Assembly: GCA_040954595.2 (NCBI GenBank)
Contig: CM082580.2
Span: forward strand, 734,783-798,782
Reading direction: 5' to 3'
Length of the DNA: 64,000 nt
Source: Balanoglossus misakiensis
Taxonomy: Eukaryota > Animalia > Hemichordata
Within the stretch, counting starts at the first letter, position 1. Every line of letters starts with the position of its first letter. Under the pieces are notes generated by a model. It had not been told where the DNA came from. It worked only from the letters and a program-made list of their open reading frames with translations, and did not search any database. Shown here one piece after another: positions 793 to 55,280 of this stretch. The position numbers and the translations under genes were made by a program.

Positions 793-860
793 TGAGATAG
801 CGATTTGAGCGTCTAAGGCTTGGATAGTTTGGCAGTGATCTGAAATAAAAATAAAATCAG

Positions 861-4432: not shown

Positions 4433-4614
4433 AATAACGGTGAGAAATTGAAATTGAGGCAGAGAGAGCGAGCACTGCAGGACACGCTCCGAACCCTTGA
4501 AGTGGCCGTGAGTGATGGATTATGGGATTTTTGAGGCTCGTTTGAGGTTGAGGGCGCCCCTTTTCGAGTTGCTTAATTGGGTAACATTATGCCGTTGATC
4601 GCAATGTTACCTAC

Positions 4615-20163: not shown

Positions 20164-23100
20164 TAGTGTTGTATGATGTGTATTCCCGTAGGATTTTTGT
20201 GCTAAAATTGATTTTTTTGCTGTTTTGGCTTCTACGGGGACCCAACTACCCGAAAATGATGGGGTGCAATTTTAAGGGCCCCTCCATCATATTTTTCTGG
20301 GGGGGGGGGGTACTTCCGTTTTGTGGTATGATGTGTATTCCCGTAGGATTTTTCTGCTAAAATTGATTTTTTTTGCTGTTTGGCTTCAATGGGGACCCAA
20401 CTACCCAAAAATCATGGGGTGCAATTTTTAGGGCCCCTCCATCAATTTTTTTCGGGGGGTCTCTTCTGTTTTGGTCACTCGAGGATATTTGTTCACCTAT
20501 TTACTCTATCATCATGGGAATTTGGGCTACAATTAATTTGTTTTTGTTGTGTTTGCTTTGGAGGAGACCAACCTGGCCAAAAATAATCGGGTGCAAATTA
20601 TAGGGCCCCTCCATCATTTTTTATTTGGGGGGGGGGCACTTCCATTTTGGCCACTCCGAAGTTGTTTGTTGGCCTATTTACTCCCTTCTCATAGAATATT
20701 TTGCTAAAAATATTATTTTTCTTTGATGTTTTGGTTTCAATGGGGCTCCACCAGAACTAAAATGATGGGGTTCAAATTTTTGGAACCTTCCATCATGTCT
20801 TGGGGGGGGGGAGGGTAATCATTTCTGTTTTGGCCACCCTGAAGATACTTATTCACCTATTTACTATACGGTTAGTATTGTCGTGGTATTTCTTGCAATT
20901 TGGTTTGCTCCTTTGGCTTGAATGCAGACTGACTGCCGAAAAGTGATGGTGTGCAAAATGTTGGACCCCTTTACCACATTTTTTGGTGGGGGGGGGGGGT
21001 TCTCTATATTTGTTTTCGCCAACCCGTTGTAACAGTAGTTTTTTTTTATCTTAGATTTTTTCGTTTATTCTAAATTTAGTATACTAAGGTAAATTAAAAC
21101 TCCTTTATATATAATAAAGTACATAATGTGTATTTTAGTTTATTTTCCGAGCTACAGTCCCATCTCATAAAATGGACCCTTGAGGCACCCTCCCTACCAC
21201 GGACGGTGCAATAAACAACCCAAGAAGCATAACGATTCTTTTCTGATATCTTGGTATTATCAATCATCATTTTCACGAAACCCAGTTCTGTTTGATCTAC
21301 TCATCGCCAGTGTCGTTATCTTCAAGAACATTTCCCCCTGGTTTTCAGTCTCCACCATAGCATTTGCAGAGGGGAGTACATAGTAAATCATTCTTTGAGC
21401 AACTGCAACGTCCCCTACAACCTGCTTTGCAGCCACATTTGATAAGCTCTAGTACTGCCTTTGGTGCAGGGAGAGCAAGACATTTTACTGGATAAAACAC
21501 GCCATTCTCCGATTTCCACCCATTCTTTTTGATTGGGGGAAGTTCAGGACAATTTGTTGCGTATGATTTATCTCTCATTGTGATGAAGGGGTGGCACCCT
21601 TTTCACAGATCACGCAAATCTTATTTTTATCTACATATTAATTCTGTAGTTTATTGCAAAATGTCCTAATAGCTATCGAACTGGAACGTAAAACGCTGCT
21701 TACGGTGCTAAGAAAATAGCCAATATGTATTTAGTAATAAAACTGAGATGTAGTTCACAGACTTGTTTTATTTTCAGTAGTATTGAGCTACAAAATGAGC
21801 CAAATTTGATATTGTTAATGTTTACCAAAACAAGTTTTAGAAGTAAGACATAGTTCAAGGGCTTTTTACAGCACTATTTTGCTATTGGCATGAAAATTTT
21901 GAAAATACTACTTTAAAATAGACAATACTTCAACTGATATGGCTTTATTTACGACAGTATTTAACTTTGAAATGAGTTCAACTGAATATCGTTTTAATAC
22001 CCCAAAAAACAAGTGTTGATTAAAACGTACTTCAGAGTTTATGCACAGACTTATATCGATGAGAATTTTAGTACAATGGTAAATATCTCAGACATTGATT
22101 GTGCTACGAAAGAATAAACAACTCTTAACGAAAAAGTTACCAGAATCATATGCATATGATTCTGGTAACTCACGGCCCCTCGGGTGTAATAAACGGCTGC
22201 TATGGCCCTCATGGCCAGGCAATAGGTGTTCACTATTTGGTATAGCCTAGTATACTATATTTTTGTAAACCATAGAAAACATGAGTGTGGTGATGAGTTG
22301 GGTGGCGGTCCAAGGTGAGGGGAGGTATATTATGCTAAGTCCAAACCAGAGAGATATTTGTGGTTGATTTGTTAGTGTCAAAATTCAACTAAGTATATTT
22401 ATAAAAATAAGATAGCGCTGTAGTATATATGACAACTGATACAAATGTAGGTAACTGATATGTTTACCCATAAACCGTCTAATATTTAAGATTCCCAATA
22501 TGTGGAGAGGCCCTAAAATTTGACCTCATTTTTGAGCAGTTAGGTCCCCATAGAAGTTAAAAAAAAAGAAATTGGAAGAAATCCTTTACAAATACACATG
22601 TCACACTATGAACAAATATCTCCAGGGCTGCTAAAACTAAAGTGACCCCCCCCCCTGCAAGAAAATGTGATGGAGGGGTCCAACAAATTGATTTCCATCA
22701 TTTTGGGGATGTTTATTCATCATTGAAACCAAAACAGCAAACAAAACAAATAACTATTAGCAAAAACTCCTACGAGAATACACGGTATAGGTGAACAAAT
22801 ACCGTTAAGATTGTCGGAATGTAAGTGCCCCCCCCCCCACAAATGTAATAGAGGGGCCCTAAAATTTGCATGTGATCTTTTGTGACCAGGTGTCAAAACA
22901 GCAAAAAAAAAATTCTTTAGCAGAAAATTCTACGAAAATGGAGTAGATAGGTGAATAAATATCTTCGGGGAGGCCAAAACAGGAGTGACGACCCCCCCCC
23001 CCCCCGAAAAAATATGATGGAGGGGCCCTAAAAATTGCACCCCATCATTTTCGGGTAGTTGGGTCCCCATTGAAGCCAAAACAGCAAAAAAATCAATTTT

Positions 23101-23310
23101 AGCACAAAAATCCTACGGGAATACACATCATACCACAAAACGGAAGTACCCCCCCCCCCCCCCGAGAAAAATATGATGGAGGGGCCCTTAAAATTGCACC
23201 CCATCATTTTCGGGTAGTTGGGTCCCAATAGAAGCCAAAACAGCAAAAAAATCAATTTTAGCACAACAATCCTACGGGAGCTGTTTTTCATGACATACCA
23301 TACCGCACTA
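20164..23310 (-). mobile_element. Non-autonomous Academ(X)-like DNA transposon
   Basis: Ends TAGTG...CACTA; 3-bp TSD ACT (20161-20163 and 23311-23313); removing it restores the satellite monomer TTTTCGACT|GCAAAATCTC. About 0.8-kb inverted arms of tandem subrepeats and an internal Cys-rich transposase tail. Confidence 0.82.
21345..21578 (-). pseudogene. C-terminal Cys8/CXC zinc-finger fragment of an AcademX-type transposase
   Basis: LPPIKKNGW...PAPKAVLELIKCGCKAGCRGRCSCSKNDLLCTPLCKC; no upstream DDE or XPG coding sequence is visible. Confidence 0.75.
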
Positions 23311-25135
23311 ACTGCAAAATCTCAAAATTTGGTCGATTTTTGAAAAAAATCATGGGTTCGTTGATTTTTTAAAAAAACATGGGTGAATTTTCGACTTTGC
23401 AAAATCTCAAAATTTCGTCGATTTGGAAAAAAAATCATGGGTTCGTTGATTTTTAAAAAAAAACATGGGTGAAAATCATCAAAAAATGAAAAATTTTCGA
23501 CTTTGCAAAATCTCAAAATTTCGTCGATTTTGAAAAAAAATCACGGGTTCGTCGATTTTTTAAAAAAACATGAGTGAAAACCATCAAAAAATGACAAATT
23601 TAAGACTGCAAAATCTTAAAATTTCGTCGACTTTTGAAAAAAAGCATGGGTTCGTTGATTTTTTAAAAAAACATGGGTGAAAATCATCAAAAATTTACAA
23701 ATTTTCGACTGCAAAATCTCAAAATTTCGTCGATTTTTGAAAAAAAAATCATGGGTGAAAATCCTCAAAAAAACGACAAATTTTTGATTTTGCAAAATTT
23801 CAAAATTTCGTCGATTTTGAAAAAAAATCATGGGTTCGTTGATTTTTTAAAAAAACATGGGTGAAAATCATCAAAAAATGAAAAATTTTCGACTTTGCAA
23901 AATCTCAAAATTTCGTCGATTTTGAAAAAAATTATGGGTTCGTCGATTTTTGAAAAAAAATCATGGGTGAAAATCATCAAAAAATGACAAATTTTCGATT
24001 TTGCAAAATCTCAAAAGTTCGTCGATTTTGAAAAAAAATCATGGGTTCGTCGATTGTTTAAAAAAAACATGGGTGAAAATCAACAAAATGAAAAATTTTC
24101 GACTGCAAAATCTCAAAATTTCGTCGATTTTTGAAAAAAAAATCATAGGCTATAGCTCATGAAAATCATCAACAAATGTCAAATTTTCAACTTTGCGAAA
24201 TCTCAAAATATCGTCGATTTTTGAAAAAAAAAACATGGGTGAAAATCATCAAAAAATGACAAATTTTCGACTTTGCAAAATCTCAAAATTTCGTCGATTT
24301 TGAAAAAAAATATGGGTTCGTCGATTTTTGAAAAAAATCATGGGTGAAAATCATCAAAAAATGACAAATTTTCGACTGCAAATCTCAAAATTTCGTCGAT
24401 TTTTGAAAAAAAATCATGGGTGAAAATCATCAAAAAAATGACAAATTTTTGATTTTGCAAAATCTCAAAAATCACGGGTTCGTCGATTTTGAAAAAAATC
24501 ACGGGTTCGTCGATTTTTTAAAAAAACATGGGTGAAAACCATCAAAAAATGACAAATTTTCGACTGCAAAATCTCAAAATTTCGTCGATTTTTGAAAAAA
24601 AACATGCGTTCGTCGATTTCTGAAAAAAAAAATTTTTGATTTTGCAAAATCTCAAAAATCACGGGTTCGTCGATTTTGAAAAAAATCACGGGTTCGTCGA
24701 TTTTTTAAAAAAAACATGGGTGAAAACCATCAAAAAATGACAAATTTTCGACTGCAAAATCTCAAAATTTCGTCGATTTTTGAAAAAAAACATGCGTTCG
24801 TCGATTTCTGAAAAAAAAAACATGGGTGAAAATCATCAAAAAATGAAACATTTTAGACTGCAAAATCTCAAAATTTCGTCGATTTTGAAAAAAATTATGG
24901 GTTCGTCGATTTTTAAAAAAAAATCATGGGTGAAAATCATAAAAAAATGACAAATTTTCGAGTTTGCAAAATCTCAAAATTTCGTAGATTTTTGAAAAAA
25001 ATCATGGGTGAAAATCATCAAAAAATGAAAAATTTTCGACTTTGCATAATCTCAAAATTTCGTCGATTTTGAAAAAAATCATTGGTTCGTCGATTTTTGA
25101 AAAAAAAAACATCGGTGAAAATCACCAAAAAAAAA
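23311..25135 (-). repeat. 78-bp satellite, inverted orientation, diverged terminal block
   Basis: Continues the 19338-20163 block after the Academ-like insertion; many truncated monomers and GGGTTCGTCGAT sub-units. Confidence 0.95.
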
Positions 25136-26123: not shown

Positions 26124-28091
26124 CTGTTGTGATTATTGCTGGAATAGGCAATGTTTTAATCTGCCTGCAAAGACTCGTGTGACAAAGATTGTCGGCCAGT
26201 CAACATCACCAACGATATTAACAATATAAAATAAATAAAATTTCAACGATTCAACTTCTTTCTAGCTTCCTATCTGGATAGTTTGTTTTTTTTTACTCTA
26301 AAGATCGCCTTTCTTCCAGGCCACGTGGCAAGAGACGTTATCAACTTCTACTATGATCGATGCGAGAGTACTATAGTATTCTCATATACACAGACAAAGG
26401 CCACCAAAATAAGAGAATCATTTGGTCAAATGGTAGAGGGCGCAAAAACAGATATTTCAAATGACAAAATTTTCCGATAAACGTGTTTAATCAAATCAAA
26501 CTGTGCTCAATGGTATGCTTGCAAAAATTGAATACAAATGAAACAAAACACAGCAACTGCCATGAACAAGAAGTTTATTCATGTCAAAATTCAATTTTTT
26601 TGAATCATTGATTTCAATTATCAGCTGAAAACTAAAATTAGATTGTCATCTTGAACAGTATAAAATCAGCGAGCCATTAGACATTAAGTACCCAGCATAC
26701 TAAAATAAAACCATGTAAACATGCACAATTAGATAATCAAATAATTTTTATTTATTCACCATGATGTTTTTAATGTATGTCAAGTCAAAGTACTTGAAGT
26801 TATGGACGATCAATTAAAATAGAAAACTGTAATTTTAATGGCTGGGTAATGTATCCAATTTCTGCCCAATATATGAAATTTCCGAGTTAGCAACTGAAGA
26901 ATTCGTGGGGAAAATAGTTACGTGATGTGTAACAGAATTCACTTGGAAGTAAGGAGTTTTTGTAAAATCAACATGCATATTACAATTTATTTGTAAAAAC
27001 TTGATTGGCAATGGAAAATTGGCGTTTAAATATATAGTACTTCAAGATGAACAGATAAAATATAAGTTATTACAGATGTCATTTTACGACAACAAGGAAT
27101 GGTAAATCGTTCTTTAATATCTTTAAAGATGCCAGGTCAAAGGTCACCTTTGCAAATTCAACCACTGGTACCATAGCCATTTCAAATGTAGCCAAAAGTG
27201 CGCCACCACTTTCTTCAAACATACTGAAACCATCTACAGGTTACCGTAGTCATATATCTCTTGGCATCCATGGCAGTTTAGCTAGTCATGAGCTGGCAAG
27301 GGGTGACCTGTAAGCTTTAAACTCTGGCTTCGGTAATGTCGACTCTGGCTCTGGCATATACTTGCAGGTCCATATGACCTTGGGGTGAACATGGTCATGA
27401 AGAAATAAATAGAATCTGTTTGGTGCATTGTCAACTTCATTTTATAGTTTCAAAAAATTACAATATGATGAGTAATATTGTTGTTGTTTTCAAAGAGACT
27501 CACCACACACTTTAGTAAATCAATGACTTGAAAAAGTTTTGAGGACTATCATTTGTCAGAATCTCGGACCGCGAGGCACATACTACCTTAAATAGTTTCA
27601 CTCGCAGCTTCTTGTGGGCAGTTTCTCCTTGCGTACCTGTACAGACACACCAGGAGGCCGTTCCCGATGAACAACTCAACCCACATGAAAACATTCAAGC
27701 GTCTGGTCACACCCATTTCCGTCAAACAAGAACATGAATGAAACTGCGGAGGAAGAGAACGGGAGAGTGCCCATTAACCCTGTAATGACCAATCATTTAC
27801 TGGAACAAGGTTCAGGATGTACGATCACTGGAGTTGAAAATAAGGTCATGGATTTGAAAATTATTTTGAGTTATGAAATTGAAAATACATATTTTTCATT
27901 GTGGATTCTCCGACATAAATATTATCAAAAACAATAAGGGTTGTCTTTTTAATTTATGACATATAACGCCATGAATCTAGCCCATTAATACAAAGGCAAT
28001 ACTAAAACACATTTCGGGTTAGCGTTATGACAACTTGAAGAAAGTATGAATACAAACTTTCTAAAGTAATATTTTAAAGGTTGGCGTATTG
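26124..28091 (+). repeat. Segmental duplication A, copy 1
   Basis: Colinear and highly similar to 42920-44888; near-identical short ORFs at 26283/43081, 27512/44310 and 27734/44532. Confidence 0.93.
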
Positions 28092-28205
28092 ATTACAGCT
28101 TGTTTGTTCTGCTATTAATGGAAATTCGGTTAGAGCTGTTTGAGGCAACTCTTATTCTGTCAAAGTTATGGCGTTAACTTATTCTGATAAAGTTATGTTA
28201 ACGCT

Positions 28206-28314
28206 AATCTGATTAAAATCAGATGTAGGGAACGGCGACGTGTTTTTTATGCTGTCGCAGCATCAAAAAACTACGTCGCCATTCCCTAGGCCTACATCTG
28301 ATTTCAAACAGATT
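28206..28314. repeat. Short palindromic (hairpin) element; related copy at 28575-28678
   Basis: AATCTGATTAAAATCAGATGTAGGGAACGGCGACGT...ACGTCGCCATTCCCTAGGCCTACATCTGATTTCAAACAGATT; the second copy has the same ends. Confidence 0.65.
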
Positions 28315-28348
28315 GTGTTAACATCAGGAACACTTTACATACATAAAC

Positions 28349-28559
28349 TACTGTAAAACACTTTATTTTAGCGAGTTGAAATTTTCACGATATCGAGAGA
28401 GGCTACTGTTTCGCGAGTATTAATTTTCGCGTTCTCTTATTTCATTCACTGCATCGTTATCTTCAAAAATAATTATGCGACCTCTTATTTTCATACCATT
28501 TTGGCTCTCACGTATCTCGCGAAAATGTATTGCTCGCGAAAATAACTTGTTTCACAGTA
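28349..28559. mobile_element. TA-flanked MITE
   Basis: TACTGTAAAACACTTTATTTTAGCGAG ... CTCGCGAAAATAACTTGTTTCACAGTA inverted ends with internal TTTCGCG repeats. Confidence 0.7.
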
Positions 28560-29241
28560 TATGCAAATATGCAGTAATCTGAATAAAATCAGATGTATGG
28601 TACGACGACGTCTTTTACTTATGTGGTACAGTATTATTAGTATGCTGTCGTCATACCAACTGCGATTTTAGTCAGATTGTATGTACGTCAACACTGATTG
28701 TTGTGGCTGCCTTAAATAGGTTTTCACTTTGCGCTACCTCTATACGTAACGCGTTCACTCAGTAGACCAAAGTACACGGATGTCCAGCAGACAAGAGTTC
28801 CTGTTTATACCATGAGGCTAGAAGACTGTATTGTGTTATTATACAGTGGTGCAGTCTAGATTTTAGTGAGGGATTGAAGCGAATCCAATTGCTTGCTTGA
28901 AACTCGCCCATCGTGATTGTGCATTGATAAAATACAATAATCATACCACAGAAACATAAATTCCAGCTGCGCCTATCAGCGAGATTGTCATAGCCTGGAG
29001 ACCAGGGCGTCGGGGAAAAGAAACGCCCGGGGACAGTCTCTATTTACGAACAGAATTCTGTTCGTAGAACGACACGTGTGGTAAATCTTGCGTGTAAGCT
29101 AATTGGTCACTCAATGTTAACCACATGACATCGTCGCCTTCTAAATAAGGAAATAGAGGTGGAGTCATGTGTGAAATTCCCGCGATGGGATGTGGGAGTG
29201 GTTTTGAAAGTGTATGAATATTCATAACCAAGCTTTGTTAA

Positions 29242-29745
29242 AGGCACGTAAGGTGTAACTTTTGGGATAATTTTCATAATTTTTGTTTCAAACTGCACTA
29301 CCATTAGTCCATGCAGATGGAGGTAGTGAACAATACACAAGCATTATAAACCCTAAGTATGAGTGCATATGCAAGTTTTAACCAAATAAATAATAAAGCT
29401 TTGCCGCAAGCGATTATGGCCGCCACCGTGGGAAAATGCAAGAAACAATGAAAATGTTGCATTTCCGGTTGTGAAACTTCATAAACAAAACATGATCTCA
29501 TCCACTTGAGCTCATGGAAGTAAATGTACACCACTGAGACATCAGATTTTCATTTTTCATTGCAATATTGCGCTTTTTTTAAAATTGCAGGAATTTTCGT
29601 TTTTCTTTAATTTTTGGCCATTTTGTCATAAATAAGTGTTGAGCTTGATATATTATCATGAAATAGCATTTAATAGACATAATTAAAAGCATATATGAGA
29701 TTATTTAAAACTTTAATTTTTTATCCAGTTACAGCTTACGTGCCT
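29242..29745. mobile_element. Kolobok/T2-type MITE
   Basis: TTAA|AGGCACGTAAG ... CTTACGTGCCT|TTAA. Confidence 0.82.
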
Positions 29746-31457
29746 TTAATTATATCATCCAACCACTGGCGCCCGTCAACATTTGATAGATCACTCGTTA
29801 TCCATTTGTTACTAAGCGACCTCGATCGTTGCCAAGACTACTATCTTTCAGCTCAGCAGGACTTGCTCGACTGTCCCCGAGCGTTGTATTTTAGATCGAC
29901 GCCCTGGTCTCCCGGCTAAGATTGTCAATATATACGCCGCATGTTGCCAGCCAGGGCCCCGACTGACATTCCCTCTGAATATACACACCCCTCTATTGAA
30001 AATGGAACATTCCTGCAAGCAAAGCATGTTGTACTTGCTTACATCAGCTGTAGTGACTTGTGTAGACCCCCAGCGCGCGGCCTCTACTGTCTGTATATGG
30101 TCTGTCACAGTCCCCGGGAGTAACTGTCATGACAGAAATCGGTTTGTCAACGGCAAAACGGAGATAAGGTGTTTTTTCCGAATATAGAATATTCAATTCT
30201 GTTTGATTCGGTCATGCCCAAAGTGTGCGTAGCTGTCGTCCTCTGACAACGCTCGCTCATATTTCATGCGGAGAACTTAAGTAGGTTCAAGCCAAGTTTT
30301 AATAGTTGGGCTAAGGTCTTCCCTGATAAGTGTTGAAATGTTTGGGGTGTTACTGTCCGGGCTGTAACGACTTGGGTCGTGGAAAATGGGGGCTGAAACG
30401 ACTGGGGCCGAAAGGGTCAGAGTGCCGGAACGACCTGTTTAAACATGTCGTTCCAGCACTATGACCCTAAAGTGTTACCTAAGATAGTGTCCAGCGTCTA
30501 GCCGTTATTGAAATTATAGACCCTGCAGCGAGACTGGGCATGATTTGTTGTTGTCATGAAACTCATCTCGTACTCCAGTCACTTTCATACAAAACGGCTA
30601 TGAGTGTCCAATGGTCTTTGTTGAGACTGTTTGACATTGAATGGCATTGACCTCGCGGGAGGATATCCTTCATGAATACAATGCAGGATATAATTTACAT
30701 TGGCAAAGGGCTTTGAGGTGCACCAAATTAGTAATTTAGACACACCTTAATTATTACATGCCACCCCAAACTTTTTTAAAGCAAGAAACAAAATTGCAGT
30801 GCTTTTCCAATGACGCTTTTTAAAATGTAGAATCAGATTGTTTTCTTGTCGCTCAGGTGTCCAAAATAAATATAGCTGTGATCAATTCCTACTTAAAGCA
30901 AACAAAAGTAAATTGAGTTGAATGGGCACGTCCGGCCCATATTTGACCCATTTCACATTTTTTCTTTCTTAGGCTGCATTCACAAACACCTCTGGAGGGG
31001 GGGGGGAATTCATCTTTTACCGCTAATTTTCACATGCCCCCCCCCCCTTTCACAACCCGAAATATTTTGAAATCCCCCTTCCGAACTGCCAAAATTTTGA
31101 AATCCCCCCATTTTCTTTCACAGAGCAAAACTCATAACTCTGCTCAAGCGCTCCCATGAAAAGAATTTGAAACTGATGTTTCCCCTCATCAGTGGGTATT
31201 AAAACTGAACATTGTTTTTATTTTTTAAGTATTTTGTATGATTATAATTAAAAAATATACAACTTAGCTAAAATGCTCAGATGAGTTAATCAGATTTTCA
31301 AAGTCCACCTAAAAGATCATTTAATCTTTCCAGGGTGCGGTTTATGTTGGAGATAGTATCAGTTAGGCTATTTCTCAGAAAATCAATGAACGATCTGCGG
31401 ACACCCCGAATAATATGTTACCACAACGCTAGCCAGGAAGCACATGGGACATTTCAC

Positions 31458-31770
31458 AATGAGGCAGTGAACACTGGGGGGACCAGACTGACACGTTAAC
31501 CAATCAGGGAGCTGTATGGTGAATAAATACATATTAATAAGACCTAACCTACAAGGTCCTGCATAATGAGGCAGTGAACACTGGAGGACCAGACCTACAC
31601 ATTAACCAATCAGGGAGCTGTAAAGTGAATAATGCATTGTAATAAGACCTAACCTACAAGGTCTGGTGAATAATACATAGTAATAAGACCTAACACATAA
31701 GGTCCCTCCAATCAGCGAGCCGCAAGTGGACCTTAGAGAAGTGGATAAACCAATCAGAACATGTAATACG
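31458..31770. repeat. Short degenerate tandem repeat (~105-bp units with sub-repeats)
   Basis: AATGAGGCAGTGAACACTGG...TTAACCAATCAGGGAGCTGTA...AATAAGACCTAACCTACAAGGTC recurs; it abuts the broken end of the Gypsy RT. Confidence 0.7.
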
Positions 31771-31811
31771 TGTGCATAGGACCTGTAATGTAGGTCATTT
31801 TGAAACAGGAC

Positions 31812-33823
31812 TAGTTCACCATGACCAACCACATGACCCAGGAAATCGATCTGCTCATAACCCACATAACACTTAGTTGGTCTCGCTGTTAACTTTGCCT
31901 TTCGTAGTCTGCTCATCAAATCTGTAATTGTCTTGATATGTTCTTCCCATGATGCAGTGTGGATCAGTATGTGATCGATATAGTTGTCTACGTTCTTCAT
32001 ATCTCTTAACAATCTTCTCATAATTCTGCTAAAAGTCGCAGCACTATTTACAAGTCCGAAAGGCATTTTGATAAATTGGTATAGCCCATCATGCGTGATA
32101 AATGCCGTCAATTGTTTAGAATTATCAGTCAACGGGACTTGCCAATATTCTTTGCTGAGATCTACTTTAGTGAAATAGTGATCCTTGGATAACTTAGCAA
32201 AAAGCAAAAAGCTCACTCAGGTCTGGTGTAGGCTCTGCATCAAACACTGTTATGCGATTGAGCTTTCTCATGTCAACACAACAACGATTGGACCCATCAG
32301 ATTTCTTCACCATTACCAGTGGAACAGCATATGGACTCTCTGAAGGTTCAGCTACTCCCATCTTAATCATCGTTTTGACTTCATCTTTCACTGCTTCACG
32401 GAGTGCATGAGGGATGGGGTATGGCCTACTGCATACTGGTGTTGGATCCATCAACTTGATGTCATGGAAACCCAGGTTGGTGTTACCACGAATATCAGTT
32501 AACATATCTTTGTAATTGATCAGCAACCTCCTCACCACTTGCTTCTGTATGTCTGACAAGTTGTCACATACATTCACATCTGCAGCAAATTCTTTCTGCT
32601 TGAATGCAGGAACCCGCAGTAAGTCATCGTTTACTTTAACCCCTGTGTTCTCTTGTACTTCTGAAGATTCATAACTCTGCTCATCTATCACAGATACACA
32701 CACAATCTCAAGAAGTCCAGCTGATACTTCATCTAGCTGATCAGTTCTTCGATAGTACCTCTTCAACAGGTTGGCATGGAATGTTTTCACCCTATGACCA
32801 AAGTCAATCTTGTAATCCATATTGCTCGCTTTCTCCACCACTGGAAAAGGACCCTTCCAGTGCATAAGTAGTTTATTATGGTCAGTAGGTAGTAGCAATA
32901 ACACCTCGTCACCTTTGTTGAACTTCCTCCATTTGGCCTTTCTATTGTAGTAGGACTTGTATTTGCCTTGTGATATCTTCAGTTCTTGTCTTGCTAAATC
33001 GCATGCCTTCTTTAATTTCTTTTGAAGATCAAGGATGTATTGATAAGTCGTTTTGGTTTCTGGTTCACTGATCTCTCCAGTCCATAGTTCTTTCAAGATA
33101 GCCATTGGACCACGCACACTCCTCCCATAAAGTAACTCAAACGGAGAGAATCCTGTGCTCGATTGAGGCGTTTCTCTGTAGGCAAATAGTAAAGCATTCA
33201 GATAACGATCCCAATATGTTGGACGTTCCTCACACATCTTCCTGAGCATGAGTTTCAATGTACCATTGAACCGTTCCACTAGACCATTGAATGCTGGGTG
33301 GTATGGGGTGGTAGTCATCTGCTTTATAGACAAAAGCCGGCTGACCTCACGCATCACATCTGATGTAAATTGAGTTCCTTGATCTGTCAGAATTTCACGT
33401 GGACACCCCACTCTTGAGTAGATGTCCAGGAGCGCCTCTGCAACAGTCTTGGTATCAATGTTAGTCAATGCAACAGCCTCCGGATAGCGTGTTGCATAAT
33501 CAACAACAGTAAGTATGTACCTATTCTTGCGTTCAGTGCATGGATGAATAGGGCCAACCAGGTCTACTGCAATACGTAGGAAAGGGATATCTATTAGTGG
33601 CATACTTCCAAGTGGTACCTTGGTCACCCGTCCCTTTGGTTGTGTCCGTTGACATGAATCACAGGACTGACAGTAACGGGAAACATCTGATGTTAGCCCA
33701 GGCCAAACGAAGTTGCTGAGGATCTTGTCTGTGGTCTTGTGAGTTCCGTGGTGACCACCCAGCACTGATTCATGGGCTAGTCTCATCACCTGGTTACGAT
33801 ACACTCTGGGAACCACCACCTGT
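31812..33823 (-). pseudogene. Integrase followed by reverse transcriptase (frameshifted, truncated)
   Basis: H2C2 (AHESVLGGH...CQSCDSC), rve core (AVDLVGP, LTDQGTQF, NGLVERFN), WKGPF. RT: VDMRKLN, then after a frameshift near 32200 DLSKEYWQV, MPFGLVN, YIDH (mutated YxDD). Confidence 0.9.
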
Positions 33824-34672
33824 CACTACAGCTTGAACGACGCCACCTATGGGCAGTATTTCCGTGGCAGCCTATGAAGCTCATGAATATTTAATTAGAC
33901 ACAGTAATGGCGTTCGCGATCGAACACAGCTGTCGATGCACAGCATAATTCGGTGAGTAATATTGCTTTATTCCAAGTTTTGTTTAGTAAAATTAGCAAG
34001 ATGTCAGAGACAATATGAAATAAAGTTGCGATTCTGCTGTGTTATTTATGTGTATCAGCCAAATAACTTGAACATTTTGATCACCCGCTGACAGTCCCTG
34101 GCCGTTGCTATAGCAGAAGCCGTCCTAAGCAACCATAAACAAACACTAAAAATTACAACGATTCAGCTTCACAGAATTGTTTTTTTCAATTTGAAAACCA
34201 TACGAATTTAGTCTTTTATACGTAAACATAGGATTCCATGTTTAAAATGCTGCTACAAGCAATATGACGAAATCATACCAAGCGAAAATATACGACCCTG
34301 TGTGTTCCTTGGCAGCAGCACGGGTTACATTGATTGTAATGGCGGCGCTTCGAATTTTCGGCGACATGGTGATATTGTTCATAGAATTGACAGAAAATAA
34401 GACCGTAACTGAAAAATCAGAAACCAATAGTTTGTGCTAAAATATATTCTTGATATAATTCGCTGGAAATTCGAGGGTGAAAACGAAATAAGAAAAAAAT
34501 GAATGGGCGAGATTGTTATGGTAAGGTTACCCACATTCTTTCTATGTCACCTTTGACCTCAATTTCTGGAGGAAGTATAATGAGCAGGTGTTTTGTTTTT
34601 GCTTCCCTCGGATAGATAATTATTGTAAAGATATTTCTCTTGTTCACCCTTTTCAGGTATAGATTTAGAGCC

Positions 34673-37600
34673 ATGTGGGGCAAACTATTCAACAGGAGTA
34701 GCGCACTTCTTAAAAGTTTGTCTATTGTTATGCCGAATAGAAAAGGGAAAAGTTACTTCAACATAGGCCAGTGGGCAAAGGACCAAAAGATAGCGAGACA
34801 GGTAGCTGAAGAGAAGTGTTTACAACAACTATATCAGGAGAAATTGAAGACTAGATCTTTGTCTGGGAGCGTGGCCAACAACCTATTGGTAGTTAGAACA
34901 AAGAGAGGACAGACTAAACACAGGTTTAACTTAGGAGAGTGGTGTAGACAGAGAAAGAGAAAGAGAGATGAGGAAGAAAGCATAATTCAGGATAAGTTGA
35001 ATAAGTTGAGTGCAGCTAGGAGACTAGTAAAAAGATCCTCAACCCAGCTAGCTAGACTAGAGAAGAAGAACAGTAAGATTTGTGAGATCTTAGCTACAAA
35101 GAATAATAAGAGAAAGGTAAGCTAGATCAGATAAATAGACTTAGTCATAATTTTAAAAATCTCAGATTTGTATAAATCCTCTTCAAATTTTAGCCCAAAT
35201 TCGCTTTTTGAACTTCATGTCACATGATCCTGTGTAAACAATGATAACAAAATGGGTTCAGCTTTGATGCAAAACATCTAGGTTTTCCAACAAACTATGT
35301 ATATTTTTTAGGATTTTTATTGCAGAAGTTGTCAGAAAAATACAGGCTACACGTGTGTATTTCTTATCAAGGACATTTAAATTAATGATTAACTTGTAAG
35401 AAGATTTTATTTTATATATAATGATTATATTCTAATTAGTATATATTTATCACACACTTAATCTTTCAGATTCCTGTTGATGTTGTTAATGTGAAACGCT
35501 CTAAATGGGTCCACAAGAACACTGAAGTATGTGCAGATAATAGTGAATCTTTGAAGCTGTCGCGACGTCAACAGTATGAACGTAGGTGTGAAACCTTATC
35601 AGCAGCCATAAATATTCATGTAGCAACTACAGATGTAAGCCCAGCCAAAGGTATAAATAAACCGAATGTACTACATCCACCAAAAGCAGCACTTGATGGT
35701 TTGTGGTATACTCTTGTTAATTCTGCCACTCCTGACCAAATGAAAACATTCTTCAGAACCTCTCCCCAAATCAGTAAAAAAGTAATGCCATCAGTATTTG
35801 ATAAATACATCAGTAAATTTGAGAAAAGTGAGAACAATTTGGTGAGGAGTGTCAGAACTATGTATGAGGGCGGAGTACTATCCAAACGAAAATATAACTG
35901 TCTGAGGCAGAGTGAACTTCAGATGTTCTCCAACTTGAAACATCCTAGGAAAGCAGTAGAAATTCATTCTGGCTGTAGAATACCAAGACTGCTCCCATAC
36001 ACAAAAGTTGTACAGTATGTAAGTAACCTTGACATTGGAAATCTTGAGCCAATTATATCATCTGAAGGCAAACAAGTCGGCTTAAAAAGAAACCCTGAGG
36101 AGTTGCTTATTAAGATTGCCAGTTTATATTTAAATATGGGGGAAACACAGCCTGATATTCTTAACTGGTTCGGTAAACAGGAGGGCTCATTTCAAATCAG
36201 TATAGGTGCTGACGGGGCTCCGTTTGGCAAACATGGACAGGCCACTGCATGGCTAGTTAGTTTCTTGAATGTGACCCACCGTGTTGCTAGCCCAGACCAC
36301 AATTTTCTCCTATTAGGGGCAAACATAAAAGAGGATGACCCCATAATGATTGAATTTGCAATTGCATTGTCAAAAGACCTTGAGTGTATTGAGAAACGTA
36401 AATATAAAGTTGGCAGTCTTGATGTAACTTTTCAGGTGTCACTTTTACCCTTTGATCAGAAGGGATTGGCCAGTGTGTCTGGAGAACTAAGCAATGCAGC
36501 AAAGTATTTCAGCTCATTTGCTAACGTTCCAAAAATGATATTGATTGTATTGGAGCAGAAATTGGCCCAGGTAAGAAGTGGGATGAATGGAAATATCAGA
36601 AAAGAATTAAAGATGCAGAAGCTGTTGAAAAGTTGAAGTCAACTAAGAAAATTAAAACTGGAAAGCCCAAAACAGTGCGACCCAAAATCACACAATTTAT
36701 AGCCAGTCTGAGGTCAAGACAGGAATTTGTACCACCGTTGGGTAGATTTATTGATTGTGCCAAGGCTGAGCCATTGCATTTAAAGAACAATGCATGGCAA
36801 TACTACTTCCAACGATTACTGATTGACGCAGTTGCCCACACTTCGGAAAAGGGTCGTGAAAATGGAGTTAAAATTGAGAATCTACCTAACGAGTCATATC
36901 TGTACAAATTCCTGTCTGCCCTAAAATATCAAGTAAAAGCTGGAAAGTTGTATAATAAGATTGTAAAATACTTCAATGAAAATAGTGTCAAGTCAAATGC
37001 CAACATTAATGTGGTTTATCGCTTCACTGGTGAGGAGTCTCGCAAACTTGCTTGGCATTTCATAGGATTGGTATTAGCATTGAGAAGCGATACAGACAGA
37101 CCAAAGCGTCGGGCTCAATTAGCTCTCTACACATATACTGGTATCTTGCTTAGAGATATCACTTTGTTATTCTCACGATTCAACATAAATGAGGGAGATT
37201 TGCTTGTACTTAGGCATAAGTGTCGGTGGTACTTTAATCTACATTCCCTGTTTCTGAATGTCAATAATACTGTGTGGCACATTGGTTATGTAGTCCCAAA
37301 ACACACCACTAGTATCTATAAGCAATTCAGTCTGGGATTAGGCCTAAACACAATGGAAGGCAGAGAGGCAAAGCATCTACGCCTGCTAGAATTCAGTGAA
37401 AATTCTACACCTCAAAATAGGTGGGCCCTCATATTTCGACACGAATATGTGATGCTTTTTTGGCTGAGGAACAAAAGTCCAAAAGCTGACAACTATAGAA
37501 ATGCAAATGTAGGTCAATTTGAGCTTAAAGAAAAAGAAAAATACATTCCCAGTCGATATTATGAGAATGCAGGCTACTGTATGTGTGGCAATTTAAAAAA

Positions 37601-37710
37601 ATGAAACAATGACTGCCTGTGAAATATGTGTTGACCCAATTATGGATGACATAAAAAAAGCAGCTGTCACTGGTAAAATATCAAATAAACTCAAGAAACT
37701 TATGCTGTGA
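34673..37710 (+). pseudogene. Spliced RAG1/Transib/Chapaev-related DDE transposase with two single-base frameshifts
   Basis: Exon 34673-35116 (AAG|GTAAG) joins in frame to 35470 (TTTCAG|ATT). Motifs GADG, PFDQK, EPLH, RFTGEE, GLNTMEGREAKH parallel RAG1 CDG, GYDEK, DALH and GAWASEGNESGNK. Frameshifts near 36528 and 37598; restored C-terminus CMCG...CEIC, stop at 37708-37710. Confidence 0.75.
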
Positions 37711-38562
37711 ACAATGATTGAATTTGAAACAGTGGATTGTGTCACTGTGTGCTACTTTAGAATTAAAGGATAACTATAGTATTAATTACATTACAGAATT
37801 ATAAAGACTCATCTGTAGTTGAGAGCTGCATTTAATAAAAATGGAGATCACAAATCACATGAATTCACACTTTTTGAACTGGAGATGATATGTTTCTTAT
37901 GGGATTTTGTATATGTGTGCATGTATGGGGACAGGGAAATTGAAACTTATCTTACCACTATTAAGTATTGTGAATAAACCCTTAATCGTATAGTGATTGC
38001 AGTGCTTTGCAAAATTAAAATGTATGACATACATAAGCTTGATAGAAAAGTTTTACATTTTTCTTGAGGAGTTGTTTATTCTGCACCTGCACGAAATTTT
38101 AATGAATTTGTGAAAAAATAAAGAATTAAGTCTCATCAAATTCTTGATATTTATAAATTTTGTCATGGAATTAATTGTAAATATTAATTAAATTTAGACC
38201 AGAAATCCTGGTTAACTGTTAGATGAGCAGTTTTGATTGACTTATCAATGTTGATTGTAGGTAACATACATTTTTTTCTGAAACTAATGAAAAATCTATG
38301 TTACAATAATGATGGAAAAAAAGAATTTTACAGTTTAGGAAATTTTGTAAACATTATCTGTTCATTTGTATTGAATGTAGATAAATAAAGACAAGTGATG
38401 AATTTTTGAGTCTTCTAATTTTCCTTTTTTTATTTGAATATATGTCAATTGTGAGAGGACTGTCTTGACAGACTGATACATCTACACTGAACAACATGTG
38501 CCACAGATCAGGAAAAAAATGTTCCTCAGATGGGTTGAATCAGTGTGAAAAATCAATAGGGT

Positions 38563-39213
38563 TCAGTTCTCTGGATGTAATGGAATTCCATGTTTGTTCC
38601 AGGCACCAAAGCTGAATCTAACAGCAACAGTCTCCCTGTTGATAAAATATTTCACAACACAGGGCTTCTCAGGTGTGAATATAACAGCTACCCTCTTTCC
38701 ACGGACTTTCTTCTCTAGGATATTCTCTGTATGCTGACCGATAGCGCCCTCGTAGCAATAACCTTTCCGTATCACATACAATAGCTTCAAGGAACTTTTG
38801 AAGGTCAAGGTTATGATAGCCCTGGAGGTCTTCTCGTCGATACCAAAACCGGTCTGAGTAGCAAACTGATGAAAAACATCAAATACTTCCCTCGGCATTT
38901 GTCGTGTAAAGCTGCTTTGCCATGGTGACCTTAACGACGGGGATGTTGACAGCCGAGCGTAGAAGGTCTTCTGCCAGTAGGTCATATCACGCTGAAACAT
39001 GGGAAATACGGCGACGTCACGCCAACGAATCTTGTCCTTTGACAGCTTGTCGTTTCGAAATATGGCCCTTGTTGTCACATCCTCAAGTTCATCAAAGAGT
39101 GGGTGTATATACAGATTGTCCGACACGCATTTTTTACGTTTAAGCACAGATTTTGCCTCTCGCAATTTGCGTTTTATAACTTTCTCGGCATCGATCAACA
39201 CGGGCGCCGCCAT
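38563..39213 (-). CDS. Hypothetical 216-aa basic protein, second gene of the transposon
   Basis: Intact ORF starting 85 bp inside the right end, strong start context CCAAGATGGCGGCG, convergent with the transposase across an AT-rich 3' region. No recognisable domain and no kelch repeats. Confidence 0.72.
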   Translation of the reverse strand: MAAPVLIDAEKVIKRKLREAKSVLKRKKCVSDNLYIHPLFDELEDVTTRAIFRNDKLSKDKIRWRDVAVFPMFQRDMTYWQKTFYARLSTSPSLRSPWQSSFTRQMPREVFDVFHQFATQTGFGIDEKTSRAIITLTFKSSLKLLYVIRKGYCYEGAIGQHTENILEKKVRGKRVAVIFTPEKPCVVKYFINRETVAVRFSFGAWNKHGIPLHPEN

Positions 39214-39297
39214 CTTGGCAATGCGTTGCTATGGTGAACATGGGAGCTCGCGCTTCGCGGAATACTGCCCAACATAGCTCTAGTATTTCCCGCAGTG

Positions 39298-41110
39298 TGT
39301 AACAGCTTTTCACCAAATTGGACCATTGGCGAATTGAACTCTCTGTACAGGATCCCATCTTTCATGATGAACTTCAACCTACCTCCATTCCTAGTCACTT
39401 TCTCGTCACCCAAAATTGCCTTCTCACGTAGTTTGTCAAGAGTGGAGTCTTCTTCTTGAGCTTGTTGAAGCTTCCCTGGCATCACCACTTCACCAACAGC
39501 TTTAGGTACTTTAAGCTCTCTAATTGGTTTTTGGTTGGCTATCTTCTGGGCTCTGGTCTCCACAGCATTTGCTAAACCTGGTACCTGTCCAACAGTTGTA
39601 CACAGTCTACATGTCGGCAATGGTTCCTGCCATGTAGTATCAGGATTCGAAGGGTCAGATACACCATCAATGTTGCCCAGTATTAAATCATACACATGGT
39701 TCATCATGCACAGTGCAGTAACATCACCAACAAAGTAAGGGGTATCAACTTTTATAGAGGCTACAGGTACTCTTCTAATAGTCCCATCTATCAGAACACA
39801 CGTCCTGTACTCACCAGTCAGCTGATTACTTGACACCAGACTTCTTCGAACTACCACGCTACTACACCCACTATCACGCAAAACGCTAACCAGCTTACCA
39901 TCGAGCAATCCCTTCATTACCGGCATCTTCTTCACTCCATGGGCACTACAAGCAGCACTCATCACTGGGAGCTTATGACCACATGGTAACACGAACTCCT
40001 TATTCAGTGTTGCATCTGTTTTATCTATTTCCATTGCTACCACCATACATGCATAACCAGTGTCTAGTCCCCTGGGCTGTTGACGGTTGCCCCAATGTGT
40101 ACATTCTTGTTTAGGTGGATAGTTTCTATCTTCTTCAGTTAACAATACCGCCGTCTTATGCATCTTTGGCTTACTTCTACAATCTTTGGCCATATGACCA
40201 CCTTTACCACATACGAAGCACGTACCTTTAAAAACATGGGAACCATTGGTTTTGTTATTAAACTTATTTACTTGATTTGGATATACAGCAGGCTTGGTAT
40301 TTGCTGTCGGCTGGCTCCTTGGATTATTCTTGGCATTACTTGGCAGTTTCCACCACCCTCGGGCATCTAAGTATTTTGAGGCAGTAGATACCATCTCTTG
40401 GACATTCTCTGGCCGTCGCTCTCTAATGAACATTGCCATGTCTCTGGAACATACTCCAATAAACTGCTCTCGAAGTAACAGATCTGTAAGCCCATTGTAC
40501 GTCTTTGGAGTACCAGCCAGTTCTACCCATCTGCCCAAATAGTCACCAATACGGTCCATAAACTTTTGAGCACTTTCATCATAATGTGGCATACACGAAC
40601 GGAACTTGTCATGAAAACTCTCCTCACTTAACTGGTAAGCCCTCAATAACTCTGGTTTCAATTCATCATAATTATTTGCAGACGCTGCAGGCATTTGGTT
40701 GTATGTGGATACATCCTTACCTTGTAACAATATGCACTGAGATTCACCCCCAGTCATCTTTTTCCCACTTCTGAGCAGTGGCGTAGCGCTGAAAACGTTG
40801 AAGGTACGCATCCATATCATCAACATCCTCACGAAAACCCTGTAGTCTCGGAGCACGCGCTTTGGCCAAATTATTTTCAGTAACCTGCTGTTCTGTATTT
40901 TCCCCTTTCAATTTTAATTCTTGTAAGTGAATTTGCATTTTCAGTATCTCTCTCTCATGTTCCTCGCGCCGCCTATTATCTTCTCTCTGCTCCTCTCTCT
41001 CAGTAGCCCTAAGATCCCTCTGTCTAATTTGTTCCTCTCTAACATAATCTTTTAAAGCAGTCCCTTCCAACCCAAATTTTCTCCCTATCTTAGATATTCT
41101 TTCTGCATAT
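39298..41110 (-). pseudogene. Gmr1-type gag and protease, frameshifted near 40745
   Basis: DMDAYLQRFQRYA...W, LLREQF, CCHC knuckle CFVCGKGGHMAKDC, protease LRDSGC; in frame with the integrase once the insertion is removed. Confidence 0.88.
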
Positions 41111-41390
41111 ATGCTTTGCTGTATCGCGATTTACAACCCCCAGTTTGACAACCCCTAGCAGTACAGGGCATTCAGCACAAGTCAACACAGCCAAACGCAC
41201 GACGCAAACCAACACGGCCCATATTATATAGCAGGAAACCACAAGCGCACATACAGTAACAGTACCAGCCTACAGACCCAGCACCGTCTTCACAATTTGC
41301 AGAATCTCTACCTATCAAAACCATGGTCTCCACTATATGGCAACAATTTATGATAGTATACAAACAAATGCACAACAAAACGATAAAACT

Positions 41391-41408
41391 CCCGGACGAG
41401 CCCCCAAA
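41391..41408 (-). promoter_or_regulatory. Primer-binding site, tRNA-Pro type
   Basis: Minus strand reads TTTGGGGGCTCGTCCGGG immediately after the LTR end TGACA. Confidence 0.88.
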
Positions 41409-42705
41409 TGTCAGAGGTGGAGGGCACCCCTCTGATTCCAGGATAAATATTGAGCAGCTCTCAGTGCCAAGGAGTAAACATCCGTGGATAAGGTATGGGG
41501 AGAAACTACACAAACCAGTGCGGATACAATAATACAGTTGATTTAATTTAAATCAATTAAATAATATAAAGATAATACTAGGAATATAATTTTTGTGCAC
41601 AATATGCACAATATCAAATGTCTCTGTCCTAACCAATTTAGCAGGTACAGGTATGCTGATACAATTGGTCATACAATACAATGGGTTACTTAATATATTA
41701 CATAAATGAATATATTCACAATATCACTATAGTTTATTGTCTATTGCATATTGTCTAAACAATGGTAAGTGTCACTTAGCTGTATATAACATTCATAGTA
41801 AACAATCATGATTCAACCACAATATGGGATGGAGTCCTGTATAGATGAACGATGTAGCGACGATCCACATTACACATACAATCTGTGATACACCATGTTT
41901 TCTACCACTTGTAGTCCTCCAGTAGTCAAGTAAACACACTGAAGACTGACTTGTTAGATGCAAGTCTTGGGTTAAATGGCTGAATGAAAAATCAACAAAC
42001 ATTGACTGAAATGTCCACCTTAGCAACTGTTCACAAATGAATACTGACGTTTCTCAATAATAATTATCAGAAATTTGGACTAGTTAAAGCGTCATGATTA
42101 CATGTGATATCATGGAAAATTATGCTTTAACTATGACCGTCCTATTACTTACAAATTGTCGAATTTGACATAAATATCCATAAAATATAAATTTAAGTTA
42201 TAGTAAATAAATAAACAAATACATTACTTACACGAGAATTCTTCACCACACTTCATGCTCAGCAATACCGGGTCTATAGGATGGTTCCACAGAACTCTGC
42301 TTGGAGCAATTTCCAGCCACACCACATACGACCATGCCAGCCACGCCAATCGCCCGACCACACCGGTTTGCACTGAATAAGCACAATTCTGCTTTCTAGA
42401 AGTACTGAATTTACTTCCACTCGAATTGCAGAAACAGTGGTCCTGAGAGCACTAATGCGCGCTACAGCATTACATGGACACAGCAAGGTATGGTGCAATA
42501 TTTCCCCTAGTATTTCTACTCACTGAGCAGGGAGACCCGACTTGTTGCTCCCTTCAAGACCTAAATTGAAGTGTGCTCTCTTACTACACGAAACTTAGCT
42601 AACGAAGCCCTATTCATTAACATGACAATACACGGTGTCACTACACCTGAAATTATGCGGGCACCTGGGTTTCCACTGACTCCAGTACTACCTAATTATA
42701 TGACA
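41409..42705 (-). repeat. 5' LTR of the Gmr1-type element (~1.3 kb)
   Basis: TGTCA...TGACA ends. The outer flank AGTTGGGACCGACAGTCGAGACCCA also occurs at ~25790 without an LTR, supporting the boundary. Confidence 0.78.
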
Positions 42706-42919
42706 AGTTGGGACCGACAGTCGAGACCCATACAGCATTACAATCAACAAATAGTAAAAAAAATAAAAAAGTAAACAAAAAACAGGAAAACATTTTAAAA
42801 ATACGAATAAAATTATGAAACTACTAAAAAAACAAAACAAAAACAAAAACAACACAAAAACACAAAACAACAAGCGAGGTCAATAAAGATTAACGCTTAC
42901 AAAGATAGAAAAAGTAAGA

Positions 42920-44888
42920 CTGTTGTGATTATTGCTGGAATAGGCAATGTTTTAATCTACCTGCAAATACTGGTGTGACAAAGATTGTCGGCCAGTCAAC
43001 ATCACCAACGATATTAACAATATAAAAATAAATAAAATTTCAACGATTCAACTTCTTTTCTAGCTTCCTATCTGGATAGTTTGTTTTATTTTACTCTAAA
43101 GATCACCTTTCTTCTAGGCCACGTGGCAAGAGACGTTTTCAACTTCTACTATCATCGATGCGAGAGTACTATAGTATTCTCATATACACAGACAAAGGCC
43201 ACCAAAATAAGAGAATCATTTGGTCAAATGGTAGAGGGCGCAAAAACAGATATTTCAAATGACAAAATTTTCCGATAAACGTGTTTAATCAAATCAAACT
43301 GTGCTCAATGGTATTCTTGCAAAAATTGAATACACATGAAACAAAATACAGCAACTGCCATGAACAACAAGTTTATTCATGACAAAATTCAATTTTTTTA
43401 ATCAGTGATTTCCATTATCAGCTGAAAACTAAAATTAGATTGTCATCTTGAACAGTATAAAATCAGCGAGCAATTAGACATTAAGTACCCAGCATACTAA
43501 AATAAAACCATGTAAACATGCACAATTAGATAATCAAAGATTTTTTATTTATTCACCATGATGTTTTTAATTTATGTCAAATCAAAGTACTTGAAGTTAT
43601 GGAAGATCAATTAAAATAGAAAACTGTAATTTTAATGGCTCGGTAATGTATCCAATTTCTGCCCAATATATGAAATTTCCGAGTCAGCAACTGGAGAATT
43701 CGTGGGGAAAATATTTACGTGATGTGTAACAGAATTCACTTGGAAGTAAGGAGTTTTTGTAAAATCAACATGCATATTACAATTTATTTGTAAAAACTTG
43801 ATTGGCAATGGAAAATTGGCGTTTAAATATATAGTACTTCAAGATGAACAGATAAAATATAAGTTATTACAGATGTCATTTTACGACAACAAGGAATGTT
43901 CAATCGTTCTTTAATATCTTTAATGATACCAGGTCAAAGGTCACCTTTGCAAATTCAACCACTGGTACCATAGCCATTTCAAATGTAGCCAAAAGTGCGC
44001 CACCACTTTCTTCAAACATACTGAAACCATCTACAGGTTACTGTAGTCCTATATCTCTTGGCATCCATGGCAGTTTAGCTAGACATGAGCTGGCAAGGGG
44101 TGACCTGCAAGCTTTGAACTCTGGCTTCGGTAATGTCGACTCTGGCTCTGGCATATACTTGCAGGTCCATATGACCTTGGGGTGAACATGGTCATGAAGA
44201 AATAAATAGAATCTGTTTGGTACATTGTCAACTTCATTTTAAACTTTCAAAAAAATAACAATATGGTGAGTAATGTTTTTGTTGTTTTCAAAGAGACTCA
44301 CCATACACTTTAGTAAATCAAAGACTTGAAAAAGTTTTGAGGACTATCATTTGTCTGAATCTCGGACCGCGAGGCACATACTACCTTAAATAGTTTCACT
44401 CGCAGCTTCTTGTGGGCAGTTTCTCCTTGCGTACCTGTACAGACACACCAGGAGACCGATCCCGATGAACAACGACACCCACATGAAAACATTCAAGCGT
44501 CTGGTCACACCCATTTCCGTCAAACAAGAACATGAATGAAACTGCGGAGGAAGAGAACGGGAGAGTGCCCATTAACCCTGTAATGGCCAATCATTTACTG
44601 GCACAAGGTTCAGGATGTACGATCACTGGAGTTGAAAATAAGGTCATGGATTTGAAAATCATTTTGAGTTATGAAATTGAAATACATATTTTTCATTGTG
44701 GATTCTCCGACATAAATATTATCAAAATCAATAAGGGTTGGCTTTTTAATTTATGACATATAACGCCATGAATCTAGCCCATTAATACAAAGGCAATACT
44801 TAAACACATTTCGGGGTAGCGTTATGACAACTTGAAGAAAGTATGAATACAAACTTTCTAAAGTAATATTTTAAAGGTTGGCGTATTG
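42920..44888 (+). repeat. Segmental duplication A, copy 2
   Basis: Colinear with 26124-28091. Confidence 0.93.
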
Positions 44889-44891
44889 CTT

Positions 44892-45960
44892 AGCATAATC
44901 ATTTTTCCGTTTGCTGTGACATTTGTCTCCCTGTGAGAGTTTAAGTAAATGTAGAGTCACGCAAATTAGGCAACATCAATATCCCATACGTAATTCAGTG
45001 TGTTTTGTTCGCATTTTTGGTTTTCATTTTGAAAATGAACAAAGGACTTTCCTATCATTGACCAACACTCGTATGAATACATCCAAATTACCCAACTTTA
45101 ATTTTCCTTAAAGAATTGGTCAGCTCTGCGAATATATTTCACCTGACCACTTCCTTTGCTAAGGAAGAGTGTTGTTTATGTAATAATATTTTTATAATAT
45201 TTATAACTTATGTAGCACATTAAATCTCAACGTGCTTTAAGTTGTCCCATGGTCATTTGAGCTAGGATGTTGGACCTAAATATTCCATTCAACTCCCTGG
45301 GGAGCAAACAACATCTCACCATCATTAGAAATGCCAAATTACAGTGCTTTTGGCCACGTATTAACCTGGGGATTTACAGTTAACTTTAAATACACACGCA
45401 TATGCATTTAATCCCCATGTGAGGGACAAAGTCTCTCTCTCGCTGCCCTTTTCCCATATTATATTTGATAAGAGACACCGTTTGTTATTCTACATGTGGA
45501 TATATAGCGAATGAACGTTCAACCACACACAACTTCCATCCCTCTTATAGACAGGAGAGTGAAAAACTCGCCAAAATGAATAATCGTTCTTTACCATTTA
45601 TTCATTTTGGGCGAGTTTTTACTCTCATATCGTACAAACGAGACGGAAGTTGTGTGTGGTCGAATGTTGATTCACCATATATCCACATGTAGAATAACAT
45701 CAATGGCGTCTTGTATCATACATAATTAATTGAAAAAAGGCAGCGATGAGAGACTTTGCCCCTTTAAACAATTGGTCAGCTCTGCGAATATAGTTCACCT
45801 GACCACTTCCTTTGCTAAGTAAGAGTGTTGTTTATGTAATAATATCAATATAATATTTATTACTTATATAGCACATTATGCAATAAATCTCAATGTGCTG
45901 CTTTGAAGTGTTTCCCATGGTAATTTGACCTAGGTCGTTGGACCTAAAATATTCCATTCC
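44892..45960 (+). repeat. Duplicated block B (related copies at ~48997-49520 and 62927-64000)
   Basis: TCATTTTTCCGTTTGCTGTGACATTTGTCTCC... begins all three copies; the 45-kb and 63-kb copies share the same MITE. Confidence 0.88.
45422..45763. mobile_element. Kolobok/T2-type palindromic MITE
   Basis: AGGGACAAAGTCTCTC...GAGACTTTGCCCCT|TTAA; the left TTAA is missing (flank deleted relative to the 63.5-kb copy). Confidence 0.85.
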
Positions 45961-55197: not shown

Positions 55198-55280
55198 GCA
55201 CTCAAATCACGGCTAAAAAGTCACCAAATCTCGTAAAGGTTGCTTGCGTATGTTCTTCGATAGTTAATTTAGACAACTAA

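Follow-up and report, generated by a model that had tools for sequence, protein, structure and literature searches.

A probable two-gene DNA transposon with a predicted RAG1/Transib-type transposase in the hemichordate Balanoglossus misakiensis

The window analysed here, a stretch of 64,000 nucleotides of Balanoglossus misakiensis contig CM082580.2, contains at positions 33824-39297 a frameshifted element which very probably represents a copy of a cut-and-paste DNA transposon with two genes. It comprises a spliced transposase gene on the forward strand and, convergent with it, an intact open reading frame of 216 codons on the reverse strand (ORF2), the product of which is referred to as the partner (Table 1). 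The left end starts with CACTAC, the right end, read inward, with CACTGC, and TGT is found on both flanks. In all these features, the original prediction, made from the DNA alone, was borne out. At both ends, TGGGCAGTATT begins at position 27 from the terminus, which the prediction had not mentioned. These are its sole two matches in the window, where 0.02 are expected, and none of 100 shuffles gave two. As both ends exhibit CACTRC, an unmatched 20-nt spacer, and TGGGCAGTATT, they are bipartite terminal inverted repeats (TIRs). The right end also exhibits an internal inverted pair, GGAAATACT and AGTATTCC (39259-39290), so the subterminal box is present there in both orientations.

The element lies in the pol region of a Gypsy-type retrotransposon, immediately ahead of the integrase zinc-binding domain. 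The direct repeats of this host, of approximately 2 kb (26124-28095 and 42920-44892), are 96.9% identical, and the element was inserted later than the host, whose long terminal repeats (LTRs) are thus 3.1% diverged. The ends and a target site duplication (TSD) of 3 bp had previously been deduced from the restored reading frame of the host. However, the host frames are in register for a duplication of 0, 3 or 6 bp, with only 1, 2, 4 and 5 bp excluded, so the frame alone cannot set the length of the TSD. The argument does not hold as a proof, but the length of 3 bp does, as it is settled by the relatives of the element. Among 35 related two-gene loci, both ends and usable flanking sequence were available for 11; excluded were L068, with one flank base, L011, L050 and L051, whose terminal bases are changed or absent, L062, with unresolved ends, and those truncated by the end of a contig or lacking recognisable repeats. 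Five of the 11 show an exact duplication of 3 bp (ATT, TTA, TAG, ATT, and ATA) and none a longer one (P ~0.003 against mismatched pairings). In L081, where the element lies in a satellite, the ATA that flanks it on each side corresponds to three bases in 55 of 56 empty units, which fixes the TSD of this element at 3 bp. The related elements are 4.2-8.5 kb long, with imperfect inverted repeats of 15-35 bp starting mostly with CACG. In L048 and L052, the inner left end is preceded, at a distance of approximately 850 bp, by a second, outer one of the CACGCCG type, and these outer ends are possibly nested or alternative ends.

Exon 1 of the transposase gene contains two [RY]FN[IL]G.W repeats, which are also present in four of 158 relatives, and shows a weak, sub-threshold match to Pfam HA (E 3e-4). 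Upstream of the start, a 5' intron is possible at 34500-34657 (donor near 34522, acceptor at 34657), accompanied by an out-of-frame upstream ATG. Exon 2 exhibits the motifs GADG (36205), PFDQK (36448), YFSSF (36505), EPLH (36768), and MEGREAKH (37353), and a stop codon at 37708-37710. It is interrupted by two frameshifts, near 36526 and in an A-run at 37597-37603. Two runs, X1 and X2, cover these sites; both come from a single sample, from which the window itself may derive. No gap is seen in the contigs of either run at the second frameshift; at the first, the sequence of the window is shared by the X1 contig, and one X2 contig carries one extra base. The window copy is dead, as it cannot produce a full transposase.

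The transposase is predicted to adopt a RAG1/Transib-type fold, as had been claimed. In the structural search, RAG1 was the best match, slightly ahead of Transib, the Z differences among RAG1, Transib, and BbRAG1L being small and the structural alignments with these three showing 10-13% identity. As no EnSpm, Mirage, Chapaev or other comparison CMCT transposase surfaced among the solved chains, this top match does not show where in the clade the family belongs. The family profile gave no sequence match at E<=10 to the RAG1/Transib PDB chains, and a Pfam scan of 66 members gave no CACTA/Transposase_21 and no RAG match. Motif order, conservation, and secondary structure suggest that D181, D262, and E566 are equivalent to D600, D708, and E962 of RAG1 (D-D spacing of 81 and D-E spacing of 304 in P0001), and the alignment of the relatives supports the predicted RAG1 order of the DDE residues. 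A DDE transposase with a predicted RAG1-type fold, CA..TG termini, and a TSD within 2-5 bp correspond to the definition of the CMCT group in a 2025 survey (PMC12730594).

According to the same survey, all surveyed CMCT lineages share the C(2)C and H(3-4)H motifs. In the present family, a CxxC within 45 residues of the second D was observed in none of the 154 scorable relatives (of 158), the site being [YF][FP]SxF instead. The H(3-4)H ahead of the catalytic E is incomplete: the second H is found in 64 of 66 members, whereas the first position is T in 56 and H in four, and an H four residues ahead of the second one is present in 24. A cysteine-rich C-terminal tail (CxC..CxxC) is found in 131 of the 158 relatives. 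Alignment A1 shows no conserved N-terminal C or H, although many database proteins may miss upstream exons, and no Chapa-type zinc finger was seen in the inferred exon 1 of the window copy.

The partner is usually basic, with an isoelectric point (pI) above 8.5 in 76 of 85 members. In its confident model (pLDDT 89.8), three long helices make up the N-terminal half, and the C-terminal part is a small alpha/beta domain, at the end of which lies a conserved motif of the YGxWNxxGxPQH type. The model is not a propeller, and no kelch/PHD match was found in a Pfam scan of 64 members, which agrees with the prediction that the second gene is not of this type. Neither a PDB sequence search nor a word-indexed protein search gave a match, and the fold searches, which for the whole protein were dominated by the N-terminal helices, gave no clear structural match. 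An exhaustive search recovered 76 representatives at 50% clustering, mostly of 200-245 residues, and some clusters have many members on separate large contigs, as for a mobile gene. In Tubulanus polymorphus (P0144, XP_074652023), the partner domain is found at the C-terminus of a 613-residue host protein, the repeats of which presumably are microtubule-associated-like; an annotation fusion or a domesticated exon is suggested.

Related loci were fetched with the transposase profile alone and then scanned with the partner profile, which gave one genome locus and 80 metagenome loci, the best 80 of 212 matches. Where the sequence extends 2 kb or more downstream of the transposase gene, the partner gene follows there on the opposite strand in 22 of 23 loci; the counts are 13 of 19 for 1-2 kb and 0 of 39 for less than 1 kb. 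The upstream control gave 0 of 23, and the median gap between the two genes is 798 bp. The second gene is therefore a stable part of the family and not one that other copies generally lack. Of 36 two-gene loci, including the window, 22 had long unbroken pieces and 16 were retained after dropping pairs more than 85% identical. For these 16, the distance matrices of the two proteins are correlated (Spearman 0.58, reached in 0 of 5000 permutations), and three clades are shared by both trees. Third codon positions of ORF2 are the most variable in four of four pairs. ORF2 is under purifying selection and is co-inherited with the transposase across lineages 31-65% identical.

The family is widespread in corals and other marine invertebrates, and intact copies are found in L048, L073, and L081. 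The L081 contig, binned in a bacterial metagenome-assembled genome, consists of a 134/160-bp satellite array (1-8240 and 16783-21959) with this animal-type transposon, and most likely entered the bin as a contaminant from the host. In the left arm of the elements in L081 (approximately 8777-9167), L073 (1165-1263), L074, and L075, parts of the partner gene recur as inverted copies, which suggests end-to-end copying or repair.

Table 1. Features of the element and of its host retrotransposon (positions in the window)
Feature	Position	Strand	Basis
Host Gypsy-type LTR retrotransposon	26124..44892	-	Direct repeats; gag-protease right, integrase and reverse transcriptase left; broken frames
Left TSD copy (TGT)	33821..33823		Sequence; 3-bp length taken from relatives
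Left bipartite TIR: CACTRC, 20-nt unmatched spacer, TGGGCAGTATT at position 27	33824..33862	+	Sequence
Transposase exon 1, 148 codons, basic	34673..35116	+	Start codon and intron predicted
Inferred GT-AG intron, phase 0	35117..35469	+	Splice signals
Transposase exon 2, predicted RAG1/Transib-fold DDE core, C-terminal CxC..CxxC, without C(2)C	35470..37710	+	Sequence, model, alignment
Partner gene ORF2, 216 aa, pI 9.95, intact	38563..39213	-	ORF, relatives, model
Right bipartite TIR, layout as left	39259..39297	-	Sequence
Right TSD copy (TGT)	39298..39300		Sequence

Elsewhere in the window, a 78-bp AT-rich satellite forms a 15-kb array at 4600-25130, in which inverted blocks (approximately 19300-20160 and 23310-25130) flank a 155-bp repeat region. 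The reverse strand carries a second gag-pol retrotransposon with three open reading frames (51082-55206) and, at 1-3737, two open reading frames of 958 and 289 codons, which we take to resemble a DIRS-type retroelement.

An existing entry for the family in Repbase or Dfam, for instance under animal EnSpm, as Chapaev-like or as an unclassified DNA family with a 3-bp TSD, is rather unlikely. In favour of such an entry, members are found in Nematostella vectensis (P0226) and Acropora, the genomes of which have curated repeat libraries. Furthermore, CAC..GTG ends with a 3-bp TSD are, according to PMC12730594, the criteria for filing weakly similar elements as EnSpm. The window copy indeed resembles EnSpm/CACTA in its CAC termini (CACTA/CACTG), its 3-bp TSD, and its second accessory protein. 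However, the EnSpm/CACTA genes are co-directional and those of the present family convergent, the relatives mostly start with CACG, the Transposase_21/CACTA domain was found in 0 of 66 members, and the C(2)C that the surveyed lineages keep is absent in 154 of 154. Chapaev3 is also similar, comprising animal CAC..GTG elements with a 3-bp TSD and an LH motif. In Chapaev3, however, the duplication is always TWA, and C(2)C, H(4)H, and the Chapa domain are retained (PMC4079192 and PMC4411706), whereas only one of the six duplications known here (ATT, ATT, TTA, TAG, ATA, and TGT) is TWA and the present family carries a second gene. The NCBI names of the relatives are all "uncharacterized" or "hypothetical", and no description of a two-gene RAG1-fold family without C(2)C was found in the full-text literature, a scope outside which lie Repbase Reports, most subscription journals, and Repbase/Dfam. 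Other RAG1-core-like sequences are described in PMC1131882, and Lanisha in 10.1101/2020.07.03.163634.

With respect to the partner, the main rival explanation, which we consider unlikely, is that it counteracts silencing or interferes with the host, for example as an RNA-binding or Argonaute-mimicking protein, so that the element evades small-RNA or chromatin silencing, and that it has no part in cutting or joining. Both language-model feature searches (ESM Atlas) rank eukaryotic Argonaute N/L1/PAZ clusters first, at 0.92 for the whole protein and 0.93 for residues 85-216. This lead is weak, as 111-135 of 256 features are shared, compared with 170 typical for true members, the recognition score of 1296 is low, and the Pfam scan of 64 members gave no Argonaute match. 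ORF2 changes much faster than the transposase (median identity of 21% versus 38%), which would fit such a factor. A precedent for transposon-borne anti-silencing cargo exists in the TET/JBP genes of fungal EnSpm, ESTA, and Plavaka; however, according to PMC12730594, this cargo jumps between transposon lineages, whereas ORF2 follows one transposase tree.

The strong form of the original prediction, in which the family is a direct sister or precursor of ProtoRAG with RAG2L replaced by, or in parallel to, another gene, appears improbable. The convergent two-gene layout within TIRs is shared with ProtoRAG/RAGL (RAG1L and RAG2L; PDB 6B40), as are the CAC termini and the bipartite ends of the window copy, and both the RAG1 top match and the cysteine-rich tail point in the same direction. 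However, the tail is unlike the CCGHC of RAG1L (PMC7204232), and the Z differences are small, with no other CMCT lineage surfacing among the solved chains for comparison. ProtoRAG/RAGL has a 5-bp TSD, and its partner is a six-bladed kelch propeller with or without PHD, in contrast to an alpha/beta protein of 205-245 residues. The present family lacks the ZnC2 cysteines and the zinc motif common to RAG1, Transib, Chapaev, and EnSpm, no RING or Chapa domain was seen in it, and its identity of approximately 12% is well below the combined mean of 26% published for RAG1L cores and Transib (PMC9435367). A special closeness to ProtoRAG/RAG was thus not confirmed, and the proposed parallel to RAG2 is to be read as one of layout. 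Compared with Transib (HzTransib, PDB 6PQX) and the vertebrate RAG1 core, C(2)C and the first H of H(3-4)H are missing. Canonical Transib is a single gene with a 5-bp TSD, whereas two genes and 3 bp are found here; as Nozomi-lineage Transibs with 3-bp TSDs exist (10.64898/2026.08.26.747230), TSD length alone is not diagnostic. Finally, that ORF2 is a passenger of a single element or a chance reading frame, as its lack of Pfam, PDB, and word-indexed matches might indicate, is refuted by its 76 relatives, fixed position and orientation, co-divergence with the transposase, purifying selection, and confident model.

Provided that the element is a two-gene transposon, we favour, on balance and by analogy, the small basic partner as a transposition cofactor binding the ends or the transposase. 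By extension from what is known of RAG1 and Transib, a transposase dimer would bind both ends and cut at the CAC termini, and the ends would then be joined to target DNA at positions staggered by 3 nt. The aromatic YFSxF segment probably stands in for the zinc-held core of the insertion domain. The partner might recognise subterminal sequence, here the TGGGCAGTATT box, or stabilise the transpososome, a role comparable to that of RAG2L in ProtoRAG or of TnpA, the second accessory protein of EnSpm/CACTA.

Several points weigh against this cofactor model and the element structure on which it builds. Mirror trees indicate co-inheritance and not contact, and the transposase itself could read the ends through its N-terminal helices (residues 5-51) without help. 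The catalytic residues are equated with those of RAG1 by motif order, conservation, and secondary structure. The loci are not independent, as many are replicate samples of the same hosts. The metagenome set is a best-matching subset, and L037 has no partner despite 6 kb of downstream sequence. A bipartite end is evident for the window copy, but the repeats of the relatives are mostly contiguous. Six of the 11 relatives show no 3-bp match (one of 2 bp, two of 1 bp, and three none); loci of the same family have one flank in common and differ in the other, and the missing matches probably reflect short-read assembly merging the ends of different copies or insertions.

Taken as a whole, we tentatively propose as a possibility that the family is an uncatalogued, superfamily-level branch of the RAG1 fold, old and widespread in marine invertebrates, which has lost the zinc site and depends on a partner with a new fold. 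It breaks the published rule of a C(2)C/H(3-4)H zinc site in all CMCT/RAG1 transposases, and it accounts for hundreds of protein clusters named "uncharacterized" in the genomes of cnidarians and other invertebrates. As intact, apparently mobile copies are present in coral-type hosts, the role of the partner and the replacement of the zinc site are directly testable. If the proposal is true, a RAG1-type transposase with two subunits would have arisen independently in this family. A long-standing puzzle in the origin of V(D)J recombination is how a Transib-like enzyme encoded by one gene became dependent on a second subunit, RAG2. The family offers a natural parallel case, as its enzyme of predicted RAG1 fold is in stable association with an unrelated partner and the two genes are likewise convergent.
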